Positions 50,899 through 55,749 of a stretch of 64,000 nucleotides of DNA are shown one piece after another. The stretch lies in the IMG/VR virus record IMGVR_UViG_3300032753_000003, positions 64,001 to 128,000 of that record; one strand, 5' to 3'. The notes below the pieces were generated by a model that searched no databases, was not told where the DNA came from, and saw only the letters and a list, made by a program, of their open reading frames with translations. Position 1 is the first letter of the stretch. Each line of letters opens with the position of its first letter. Source of the DNA: a virus. The translations under genes and the position numbers were made by a program.

Positions 50899-51341
50899 TA
50901 TTAGATTGCGCTGCTGTTAGCAGAGTGAACAAGGTACCAATTCGTGGCTAGATCGAGCTCGACGCTTCGAGTCAAATTGGACAATACCAAGTAGCTTCAG
51001 AGTAACGATCTGACAGCGCAAGCTATCTTTTATCTTTTACACCAAACATCTAGTGATGTGCTATTAACCCATGGTATCTGTTTGTGTTTGAGATAGGCAT
51101 ATTGCCATTCATGCAGCTACGAATACGTCTGCAGAATAAGGTACAACTAAGTTGTTGAAAATACTTTGCCAAACTGTCTCAAACGACCAAAAATGTCCAG
51201 ATAGGCAAACTGCTACTTTCACATTAACTATCCTTTGTGATTATAACTTTATAATAGTGTAATATATCAGTCTCTGTATACCAAATTGGCATTAGATTTT
51301 CTTCAAACTAAATATTATTGGTATTTGAAGGAGAGACTGTC

Positions 51342-52151
51342 GTGACCAAAAGATCTTACGGATGGAAACAATCTAAACCTGATCCACGTGATCACAAACT
51401 TAAAACTATAAATCCTGCAGTATATAATAGTTTACCTGCCTCCGTTGATTTGAGGCAATATGTACCAGAAGTTTTAGATCAAGGCGATTTGCAATCATGT
51501 ACAGCTAACAGTATCAGTATGGCAATAAGAGTTGCTAGAGCAATACAAAAATTACCCGATTTGCAACCATCAAGATTGTTCATCTATTACAATGAACGAC
51601 TATTAGAAGGCACAGTTGATCAAGACGCAGGTGCCGAACTTAGAGATGGTGCAAAGGTAGTAGCTACATACGGTGCACCTGCTGAATCAGTTTGGGCATA
51701 TGTAGATAACAACTTATATGTTGAACCAAGCAAAGAGGCCTATGAATCTGCGGTACAGGATGAAGTCAACAAATATCTAGCTGTAGACCAAACCCTAAAT
51801 GAACTCAAGTTGTGTTTGCACGAAGGTTTTCCATTTGTGTTTGGTGCTATGCTGTATTCTGCATTTGAATCAGACGATGTAGCAAAAACTGGTATTGTAC
51901 CGATGCCAGATCCCAATGATCAGCTGATTGGCGGTCATGCATTATGCTGCGTTGGTTATGATGATAGCCGCAAGGTATTCATAGTTCTTAACAGTTGGAG
52001 CGACACTTGGGGTGATCACGGATATTGTTATTTCCCATATGATTATATGACCAATCCAAATCTGTGTTTAGACTTCTGGACTATTAGGAATATTGCTCCC
52101 ACTGATCCTAATAGACAATGGGTTATTCCAAATGTTAATGCACAAGCATAG
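51342..52151 (+). CDS. papain-like C1 cysteine peptidase
   Basis: DQG..SCTAN, GHA...VGYDD, NSW...WG..GY. Confidence 0.9.
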   Translation: MTKRSYGWKQSKPDPRDHKLKTINPAVYNSLPASVDLRQYVPEVLDQGDLQSCTANSISMAIRVARAIQKLPDLQPSRLFIYYNERLLEGTVDQDAGAELRDGAKVVATYGAPAESVWAYVDNNLYVEPSKEAYESAVQDEVNKYLAVDQTLNELKLCLHEGFPFVFGAMLYSAFESDDVAKTGIVPMPDPNDQLIGGHALCCVGYDDSRKVFIVLNSWSDTWGDHGYCYFPYDYMTNPNLCLDFWTIRNIAPTDPNRQWVIPNVNAQA

Positions 52152-53555: not shown

Positions 53556-54605
53556 ATGTCAAGGATATTGTTAATACTCAAGAGACGAGAAGATTTTAAT
53601 AGCACTATAAATAACAAGATAGGGTTGAGCACCGGTCTATACAATTCAGCAAACTTTGTCAATGAAATGTTAATACAACAGGGAATTGAATCTAAGCTGG
53701 TAGTTGTTATAGACAATAACGACATCGATAGAGAAGTCGCTGCCTATCGACCAACACACGTTGTAATAGAAGCGTTATGGGTAGTACCTAGCAAGTTTGC
53801 AATACTACAGAAGTTGCACCCAAATGTAACATGGATCATAAGGTTACACTCTGAAATGCCTTTCATGGCCGGGGAAGGTGTAGCTATGGATTGGCTAGGC
53901 GATTACAGCAGTTTCAAAAACATCATTATTGCGTGCAATGCACCACGCATGTTAAGAGAAGTTAAGACCTATTTAAGAATAAGAAACTCTTGGTCTAGCG
54001 AAACAGCAGATTCAAAGATCATTTATCTTCCCAATCACTATCCACAGAATTACAAGACTAAATCAATAGATAAAAACAAAGATTACGTTGACATCAGTTG
54101 CTTTGGTGCAATTAGACCGTTGAAAAATCATTTGTTACAAGCCATAGCAGCAGTTGAGTTTGCAGATAGTATAGGCAAGAAGTTGAGATTTCATGTCAAC
54201 GCAGGTCGCATTGAGATGAAGGGCGAACCAATGATCAACAACCTAAAAGGTCTATTCATGCAATTGGCTGAACGAGGTCATTCATTAGTTAATAATCAAT
54301 GGATGCCGCACGAAGAATTTATAACATTGTGTGAAACAATGGATATTGGCATGCAGGTTAGCTTCTCCGAGACGTTTAATATAGTTGGTGCCAACCTTAT
54401 CAGTCAAGGTGTACCTGTGGTAGGCAGCAAGGAAATACCTTGGATGCCAGCTGATAACTGTGCCGATCCCACTGACAGTGCAGATATGATAAGTAAGCTT
54501 CTTGCTACATGGAATGATCCATTAGCTAATGTAACATCTAATCAGGCAGCACTAACGACATATACAAATAATACACAAACGATGTGGAATAACTATTTCA
54601 AATAA
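53556..54605 (+). CDS. GT-B (GT4-like) glycosyltransferase
   Basis: FGAIRPLKN, S.SETFNIVGA..GVPVV motifs. Confidence 0.75.
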   Translation: MSRILLILKRREDFNSTINNKIGLSTGLYNSANFVNEMLIQQGIESKLVVVIDNNDIDREVAAYRPTHVVIEALWVVPSKFAILQKLHPNVTWIIRLHSEMPFMAGEGVAMDWLGDYSSFKNIIIACNAPRMLREVKTYLRIRNSWSSETADSKIIYLPNHYPQNYKTKSIDKNKDYVDISCFGAIRPLKNHLLQAIAAVEFADSIGKKLRFHVNAGRIEMKGEPMINNLKGLFMQLAERGHSLVNNQWMPHEEFITLCETMDIGMQVSFSETFNIVGANLISQGVPVVGSKEIPWMPADNCADPTDSADMISKLLATWNDPLANVTSNQAALTTYTNNTQTMWNNYFK

Positions 54606-54821: not shown

Positions 54822-54881
54822 TTTTTTAAAAATATCGTTTTAATGGTTGACCTAATTTACTAAAGGTCTTATATTAACAAT

Positions 54882-55700
54882 ATAGACGCTGAGGACAACG
54901 CAAGTTGAACTTGGTGCAGAAATTGGTTGCATGAACCAATAAGCTGGGTGACCAGTAAATTGCGGTGAAGCCTACATAACCGCGCCGTAACTTGTTACGG
55001 AAATCATGCAAGCTTGGGTTAGACTTGACTCGGTAATACCGAAAGCAAGTCCCGTCAGTAGAATGGCGGTATGCGGTAAGTTACCGCAATGGGTCCGAAA
55101 GGATAGTGTCAGAGCCAATCGGTGAGACACAATGTGGTTGGCGCCACAGCCTATTGCACGCCAGGGTAACGAGCGCAGAAGACCAACAGGTGGATGTGAG
55201 TCTGACTGTTCGCGCAGAAAGGCAAAGCATCAGTTCAAAAGTCAAAGGGATAACCGGAGACTTGAAGAACAGCTAAGTAGCCCGCAAGGTGAAAAGTATG
55301 CGGCGTGGTGTATTGGGTATGCCAAAAGCATATTCAGCAACTGAGGTAGCACGTCGTTGTTAGGTTGATAAAAAGCAAAGACTACCTCGGTTACATAGGT
55401 AAGGTATCAAATACTTGACTCGCAAGAGAATCAAGTCTAATAGACCTCGCAAGGGAATATTAGTTAGTCATGGATGTTTCATAGACGGTTAGCGCTGTCG
55501 AACTGCTCGCAAGGTAGGTGGGAAGAAAGTGGCTGAGAACTATGTAATGACACCGCGGAACGTGAGCGGTATATAAGAACGTGATACTAGTGAATACAAA
55601 TGTACCGCAAGGACATTTGTGGTCAAGAAATTAACAGATCCCGCAAGGATGCTGGTACGGTTTCTAAGGTCACTGTATAAAGCTGTAGGCTCAAGCTTTT
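54882..55700 (+). ncRNA. GOLLD-like giant structured RNA (~820 nt)
   Basis: Own promoter (TTGACC..TATATT) and terminator; many GCAA/GAAA/GTAA-capped hairpins; no credible ORF; near tRNA array; GTGGTGTATT..CCAAAAG..GCAACTGAGG..GCAC segment recalled as GOLLD-like. Confidence 0.7.
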
Positions 55701-55701
55701 C

Positions 55702-55730
55702 AAAACACCAAACATAATGTTTGGTGTTTT
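55702..55730 (+). terminator. 13 bp hairpin terminator after the giant RNA
   Basis: aaaacaccaaaca-taa-tgtttggtgtttt. Confidence 0.85.
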
Positions 55731-55749
55731 CTATTAAAGAATAGGCATC

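Follow-up and report, generated by a model that had tools for sequence, protein, structure and literature searches.

The stretch of DNA analysed here (the window: 64,000 nt, positions 64,001 to 128,000 of IMG/VR virus record IMGVR_UViG_3300032753_000003) holds, between a gene for a 349-aa protein and a gene for a 206-aa protein, a unit of approximately 816–850 nt which is without coding signal (Table 1). Its GC content is 0.46, compared with 0.38 in the flanks, and an 854-nt strand covering it folds to −290 kcal/mol, against −234.5 ± 5.1 kcal/mol for dinucleotide shuffles (z −10.8). The minimum-energy fold contains 24 hairpin loops, with six strict GNRA tetraloops and three C(GCAA)G loops; two additional GNRA caps, at 55196 and 55284, were recovered by direct search or from the family consensus, bringing the total to about ten. 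The motif CGCAAG occurs seven times on the plus strand within 849 nt; the remaining 63 kb of that strand in the window have 23 copies. Open reading frames inside the unit have 70 and 86 codons, the longest stop-free stretch is 85 codons, and in 139 relatives (described below) the median of the longest stop-free stretch is 95 codons, compared with 89 in shuffles. A sequence-only reading of this DNA had described a unit of about 820 nt with promoter and terminator, a higher GC content than its surroundings, at least nine GNRA-capped hairpins, five of them with CGCAAG, and no credible ORF. This description holds in all points except the number of CGCAAG motifs, which had been counted too low.

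The unit had also been taken for a relative of GOLLD RNA, which is said to go back to work by Weinberg and colleagues in 2009, and a search with covariance models had been proposed. This search was run over the whole window (Rfam 15) and confirms the guess: GOLLD (RF02032) matches with 169 bits and an E-value of 1e-45, the match spans model positions 1–416 of 416 and is untruncated, and the score lies 19 bits above the curated gathering score of 150 bits. It is the single GOLLD copy found by the Rfam model in the whole virus record of 199,865 bases. Between 54600 and 55900, GOLLD is the only Rfam match at E ≤ 1, with ROOL, OLE and a hidden tRNA all absent, and neither ROOL nor OLE reaches its gathering score anywhere in the window. 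Membership in the GOLLD family is thus hardly open to doubt. With its 816 nt, the copy matches the size of known GOLLD RNAs (about 800 nt), in which a separate, less conserved 5′ domain precedes the 3′ domain. Since the Rfam model describes the conserved 3′ domain only (approximately 398 nt in this copy), separate evidence was needed for the 418 nt of the 5′ domain.

Table 1. Features of the GOLLD locus and its surroundings. Positions refer to the window unless a locus is named.
Feature	Position	Strand	Basis or remark
tRNA look-alike	33930–34015
Free Asn and Lys tRNA genes	35344, 46127, 36342, 36428
Papain-like cysteine peptidase	51318–52151	+	PF00112, E 6e-10; inside the tRNA island
Nearest tRNA gene	53404–53479
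Gene for 349-aa protein	53556–54605	+	155 relatives in viral contigs
Stop of upstream 67-codon ORF	54821
Sigma70-like promoter site, TTGACC-17-TATATT	54847–54875	+	10/12 matches; predicted start near 54882
RNA, predicted start to end of 3′-domain core	54882–55697	+	816 nt
5′ leader hairpin, GCAA tetraloop cap	54882–54920	+	−12.6 kcal/mol, z −3.2
GOLLD 5′ domain, many helices, family-conserved GNRA loops at 54948, 55097 and 55284	54922–55299	+	Iterative nhmmer
Part covered by 5′ profile	54922–55370	+	RNA bases 41–489
Rfam GOLLD match	55300–55697	+	RF02032
First 3′-domain hairpin (P13/P14), A-rich loop CAAAA	55300–55357	+	Rfam model positions 1–62
Central linker J13/15, ~24 nt ahead of invariant AAAAAGCAAAGAC	55358–55389	+	tRNA-free
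Part covered by 3′ profile	55378–55693	+	Iterative nhmmer
Conserved 3′-domain core, terminal loop GUAGGCUCA	55390–55697	+	RF02032, 169 bits
GCAA-capped hairpins in 3′-domain core	55422, 55449, 55509, 55607, 55643	+	Loop conservation
CGCAAG copies	54899, 55283, 55421, 55448, 55508, 55606, 55642	+	Motif count
Intrinsic terminator: 13-bp A/U-flanked hairpin, then U-rich tail	55702–55735	+	Hairpin 55702–55730
HNH endonuclease ORF	57717–58175	+	PF01844, E 7e-7; 2 kb downstream of GOLLD
349-aa homologues at canonical GOLLD loci	L118 987–1985; L139 9376–10374; L160 13783–12782		42–44% identity
tmRNA genes near GOLLD in relatives	L160 10522–10899; L181 2282–2618; L222 2742–3096; L367 1282–1619		One permuted

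A blastn search of the RNA against 50,697 GenBank phage records gave no match. An earlier pattern built on the 3′ end had returned mostly canonical GOLLDs, too divergent for blastn alignment, and a stricter version of it found two loci only; when 12 full-length matches with long gaps were aligned, 10 resembled chance matches in coding DNA. Relatives were fetched with a pattern of three conserved 3′-domain blocks common to the window and two look-alikes. As the pattern fixes these three blocks, their conservation among the relatives is circular. It matched at least 119 stretches each in viral and in metagenome contigs; at least 239 loci with the pattern were fetched, at least 174 in full length, and at least 153 were unique. 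Both the 5′ and the 3′ part of the RNA were aligned by iterative nhmmer, starting from the window halves, to all 153 unique loci listed. The 5′ profile begins at RNA base 41, and the 5′ leader hairpin falls outside it as a lineage-specific element. The window copy scores 213 bits against the 5′ profile (core members approximately 450), and its closest relative among the matches listed is L373, with identities of 67% (5′ domain) and 55% (3′ domain). In an Rfam scan of six relatives, L222, L309, L181, L373 and L367 obtained 154–203 bits on GOLLD and L163 fell below the cut-off; a tRNA match is nested inside the GOLLD interval in the first four.

The relatives also bear on how the RNA is transcribed. 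The promoter box of the window copy ends 7 nt ahead of the predicted start. Of 133 relatives among the matches listed, 59 have a promoter-like site (at least 9/12 matches) in the 150 nt ahead of the conserved core, whereas the same search in a control region inside the RNA found one in 1 of 133. Most commonly, the −10 box in relatives ends 30–50 nt before the core; that of the window copy ends about 45 nt before it, so the promoter is in the family's usual place. At the other end, the terminator hairpin (−14.9 kcal/mol, z −5.8, none of 200 shuffles equally stable) is followed by CUAUU; a simple terminator scan did not pick it up. By a crude test, a terminator-like hairpin directly downstream was seen in 8 of 138 relatives among the matches listed, and a clean promoter-to-terminator unit is accordingly less typical of the family. 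The RNA could instead stem mainly from read-through of the upstream genes or the tRNA island with subsequent processing, and the promoter match could be fortuitous. Such an origin would agree with the lack of a terminator between the stop codon of the upstream 67-codon ORF and the RNA, with the number of promoter-like sites in this AT-rich region (6 found, 5.5 expected from shuffles), and with the presence of an upstream site in only 59 of the 133 relatives listed. We nevertheless think it unlikely, because the site has 10 of 12 matches, a 17-nt spacer and precisely the distance expected, and because the sites of relatives cluster 30–50 nt ahead of the core, against 1/133 in the control region inside the RNA. 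A stand-alone transcription unit, as proposed from the sequence, is plausible: it has a promoter-like site and a terminator of its own, but between it and the upstream gene there is no terminator.

The window copy differs from its relatives in the central linker. Counted from where the 5′ profile ends up to the invariant GCAAAGAC, its linker is the shortest of 146 relatives among the matches listed (2 versus a median of 69, range 2–175), and it holds no tRNA at E ≤ 1 in Rfam and none according to ARAGORN. Of the 146 relatives listed, 100 have a linker tRNA according to ARAGORN, and most others have a linker of tRNA size. The linker tRNAs listed mostly have AAN-box anticodons, led by Asn(GTT) with 34, Lys(TTT) with 20 and Lys(CTT) with 10 cases. 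Linkers below 50 are found in eight members listed, the window copy included. In a FastTree phylogeny of both domains, the neighbours of the window copy bear tRNAs (Arg, Leu, Lys, His), and members with short linkers are scattered over several separate places, which suggests repeated loss in this tree, rooted by midpoint only. No covariation was detected between J13/15 and the loops of the 3′ domain, and no kissing pair of L20 with J13/15 was located; the expected partner segment is invariant in the relatives fetched.

Some properties of the linker tRNAs were noted along the way. Among the subfamily loci (L162–L397), none of the five commonest anticodon groups encodes CCA, and the tRNA 3′ end lies 3–8 nt before GCAAAGAC. 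Some tRNA bodies are up to 98.6% identical yet differ in the anticodon (e.g., CTT and ATT), so the anticodon seems free to change. Judged from these sequences, the linker tRNA may be a structural module rather than a decoder. The residual linker of the window copy (55358–55376) reads UGUUAGGUUGAU, and a three-way alignment sets it against the first bases of the tRNAs embedded in L096 and L146, UUAGCUCA(A/G)U; it could be left over from a deleted tRNA or align there by coincidence.

A copy which has lost its linker tRNA might have drifted into a decaying relic, with assembly and activity gone. Having the shortest linker of the 146 relatives listed would suit a relic, as would its place among the more divergent members (213 bits on the 5′ profile versus approximately 450 for core members), an Rfam score barely above the cut-off, and five related jumbo-phage records which manage without GOLLD (see below). 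Against this, both domains are complete and untruncated, the fold is extremely stable (z −10.8), promoter and terminator are retained, and so are the GNRA loops at eight sites conserved in the family. The occurrence of short-linker members in several branches of the tree further marks a short linker as a tolerated state. Decay is thus a very improbable account of the locus, and we continue with the reading of an intact GOLLD RNA.

Support for the structure of both domains comes from covariation. RNAalifold was applied to the profile alignments, which are profile-based and not structure-based, and controls were made by sliding the 3′ partner of each pair by 1–3 columns; a pair was counted as compensatory when it showed compensatory types and was at least 85% paired. 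The 5′ profile, which reaches through the first 3′-domain hairpin to 55370, has 115 consensus pairs, 79 of them compensatory, with 93% of cells paired; its controls have 3–6 compensatory pairs and 37–43% of cells paired. For the 3′ domain, 52 of 84 consensus pairs are compensatory and again 93% of cells are paired, compared with 2–6 compensatory pairs and 31–40% in the controls. Taken together, 131 of 199 pairs are compensatory in the subfamily alignment of the matches listed. The alignment that yielded the structure also served to test it, which favours it over the controls, but the margin is still very large. The window copy itself forms 86/115 and 71/84 of the consensus pairs (157/199). Part of the pairs which it fails to form (29/115 and 13/84) is explained by inserted bases that the profile alignment dropped, and at such places its own fold has an equivalent hairpin, e.g., at 55030–55040. 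The family retains GNRA caps at the eight sites given in Table 1 (142/142 at 54948), so the feature most visible in the sequence is a real family trait; this conservation fits the tetraloop and minor-groove contacts which hold the solved cages together (PMC12286853, PMC12990946). We conclude that the window copy belongs to a large environmental GOLLD subfamily from lake and soil whose whole structure is backed by covariation. That the stretch is another large RNA (ROOL, OLE or a new class) or codes for protein, for which the only arguments are its size and two small ORFs (70 and 86 codons), has a negligible chance of being right, as GOLLD is the sole match at E ≤ 1, ORF lengths equal those of shuffles, and the substitutions in relatives are compensatory base-pair changes.

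With respect to its genomic setting, the virus record is rated 39% complete, which implies a genome of approximately 500 kb. The window contains 30 tRNA genes. A 20-kb tRNA island ends 1.4 kb upstream of the RNA, and its tRNAs share their strand with the RNA. A phage setting close to tRNA genes, as known for GOLLD, is what the record contains. Two further proposals of the sequence-only reading fared less well. The suggested link between GOLLD and the tRNA mimics of this genome finds no backing: a search through 2.4 Mb from about 315 other GOLLD loci turned up no homologue of the tRNA look-alike of Table 1. The genome is also a weak candidate for a model of GOLLD function, being an uncultured metagenomic phage fragment when cultured carriers exist. 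One cultured carrier is a Lactobacillus brevis prophage. Others are the Caulobacter phiCbK phages, which are part of the GOLLD alignment of PMC12286853, as well as Streptococcus agalactiae and Mycolicibacterium (PMC12990946).

For the upstream 349-aa protein, Pfam, PHROG, NCBIfam and PDB gave no sequence match, and the sole lead, from a protein atlas, is a GT-B glycosyltransferase. The protein was rejected as a likely partner of GOLLD. In 80 loci sharing this gene, nhmmer and blastn detected no similar RNA, and Rfam found only tRNAs in 16 of them; thus, synteny gave no orthologues. Several of these 16 loci carry adjoining tRNA arrays. In three canonical GOLLD loci, a homologue of the 349-aa protein directly follows GOLLD and one tRNA, and the adjacency may merely be shared residence in tRNA islands. 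Five jumbo-phage records with the 349-aa gene (G001–G005, i.e., L008, L022, L070, L050 and L052; 166–354 kb, three of them 92–99% complete with 333–354 kb) have no GOLLD at E ≤ 0.01. Consequently, GOLLD is accessory and patchy among phages sharing this gene and dispensable in those five, which have one gene in common with the window phage and are not necessarily its nearest relatives. The downstream 206-aa gene has a distant relative at one locus only. The tRNA island itself contains a papain-like cysteine peptidase, and an HNH endonuclease ORF follows downstream of the RNA (Table 1). In four of nine relatives scanned, a tmRNA gene is located within a few kb of GOLLD beside dense tRNA arrays; Rfam found no tmRNA in the window.

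Based on these results, the best explanation overall is that the region from 54882 to about 55735 on the plus strand is, with high probability, a GOLLD RNA gene carried by a large uncultured phage. Both domains are present in full length, and the gene has a promoter-like site and a terminator of its own. What it adds to GOLLD is one unannotated, rather divergent copy; the family itself was already known.

Solved structures give an idea of how such an RNA might assemble. The env-38 GOLLD (833 nt) forms a D7 14-mer of 380 Å across, which is intact at nanomolar concentration (PMC12286853; PDB 9MEE, Kretsch et al. 2025). GOLLD of S. agalactiae is a 12-mer (PDB 9L0R), and its 3′ domain alone is mainly a 10-mer (9LMF); the differences in stoichiometry have been ascribed to presence or absence of P7, P9, P10, P11a-c and P21b (PMC12990946). 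In the solved structures, the cage has a “cap” built from the 5′ domain (PMC12286853, PMC12990946), and L14 makes a minor-groove contact between chains in the S. agalactiae RNA (PMC12990946). At the matching model positions, the window copy has an A-rich L14 (CAAAA), both P21-branch hairpins and a GCAA L24. Judging from its two homologues with solved structures, its transcript would fold into a 5′ cap and a 3′ “ring” domain, and copies would join by contacts between GNRA loops and minor grooves and by kissing loops to give a closed, hollow homo-oligomer. We consider it fairly probable that the window copy assembles in this way; by analogy, the product would most likely be an RNA cage of 12 to 14 copies. 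Stoichiometry varies among the solved GOLLDs. In env-38, a disordered linker of 42 nt points into the cage (PMC12286853). The linker of the window copy has shrunk to approximately 24 nt and is free of tRNA, so its cage would have an empty interior with no module tethered inside.

Published ideas on function comprise encapsulation of tRNAs, ribosomes or other molecules, and an “inhibited storage” of the embedded tRNA (PMC12286853, PMC12990946). For the window phage, one may speculate that the RNA serves as a compartment or scaffold during infection and acts on the tRNA economy of the phage, in this case on free tRNAs instead of a tethered one. A role linked to tRNAs would fit the genomic setting and is possible, although we hold it only tentatively. 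More specifically, the window copy could be a naturally “empty” GOLLD: the tethered tRNA would be cis cargo in relatives, while the window phage, with approximately 30 free tRNA genes and several tRNA look-alikes, would load free tRNAs or look-alikes in trans. This proposal is a long shot. If it were true, the copy would be a natural separation-of-function variant, and it would point to storage or shielding of tRNAs, e.g., from anticodon nucleases of the host, as the job of the family.

GOLLD is one of the largest non-coding RNAs of bacteria and phages, and its RNA-only cages are larger than the ribosome. Taken alone, the window copy adds little to this; its value is comparative. The tRNA-shaped insert of the linker can be lost with both domains kept, and any model of GOLLD function must consequently work without a tethered tRNA. 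A natural variant with a minimal linker is moreover a convenient construct for work on assembly and structure.

Compared with known systems, ROOL (an octameric cage, PDB 9MDS) is likewise a large phage-associated RNA near tRNAs, but it has an unrelated fold and gives no Rfam match to the window copy at E ≤ 1. With the GOLLD family as defined by RF02032, the window copy shares the phage setting beside a tRNA island. The tRNA-bearing GOLLDs (100 of the 146 relatives listed) belong to the same subfamily by both domains; the window copy, in contrast, has no embedded tRNA, and the Asn and Lys tRNAs of its phage are separate genes. A tRNA-Phe in J13/15 is reported for Mycolicibacterium GOLLD (Morgado et al. 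2020, PMC7549688, as related in PMC12990946). The S. agalactiae RNA is of the same family, and the kinds of contact it uses (minor groove at L14, tetraloop-receptor at L24, kissing loop at L21) would be the same in the window copy, but it measures 700 nt and is without P9, P11a-c and P21b, whereas the window copy has about 816 nt and a second P21 hairpin. The full match of the 3′ domain, many GNRA loops and two P21-branch hairpins are shared with env-38. The domains are similar in size (420 and 413 nt in env-38 versus approximately 418 and 398 nt), and the window copy differs by its extra 5′ leader hairpin, its divergent sequence and its linker, which is empty at about 24 nt, compared with 42 disordered nt in env-38 and a tRNA in many other members. 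Judging by the second P21 hairpin and the length of approximately 816 nt, the window copy looks closer to the 14-mer type.
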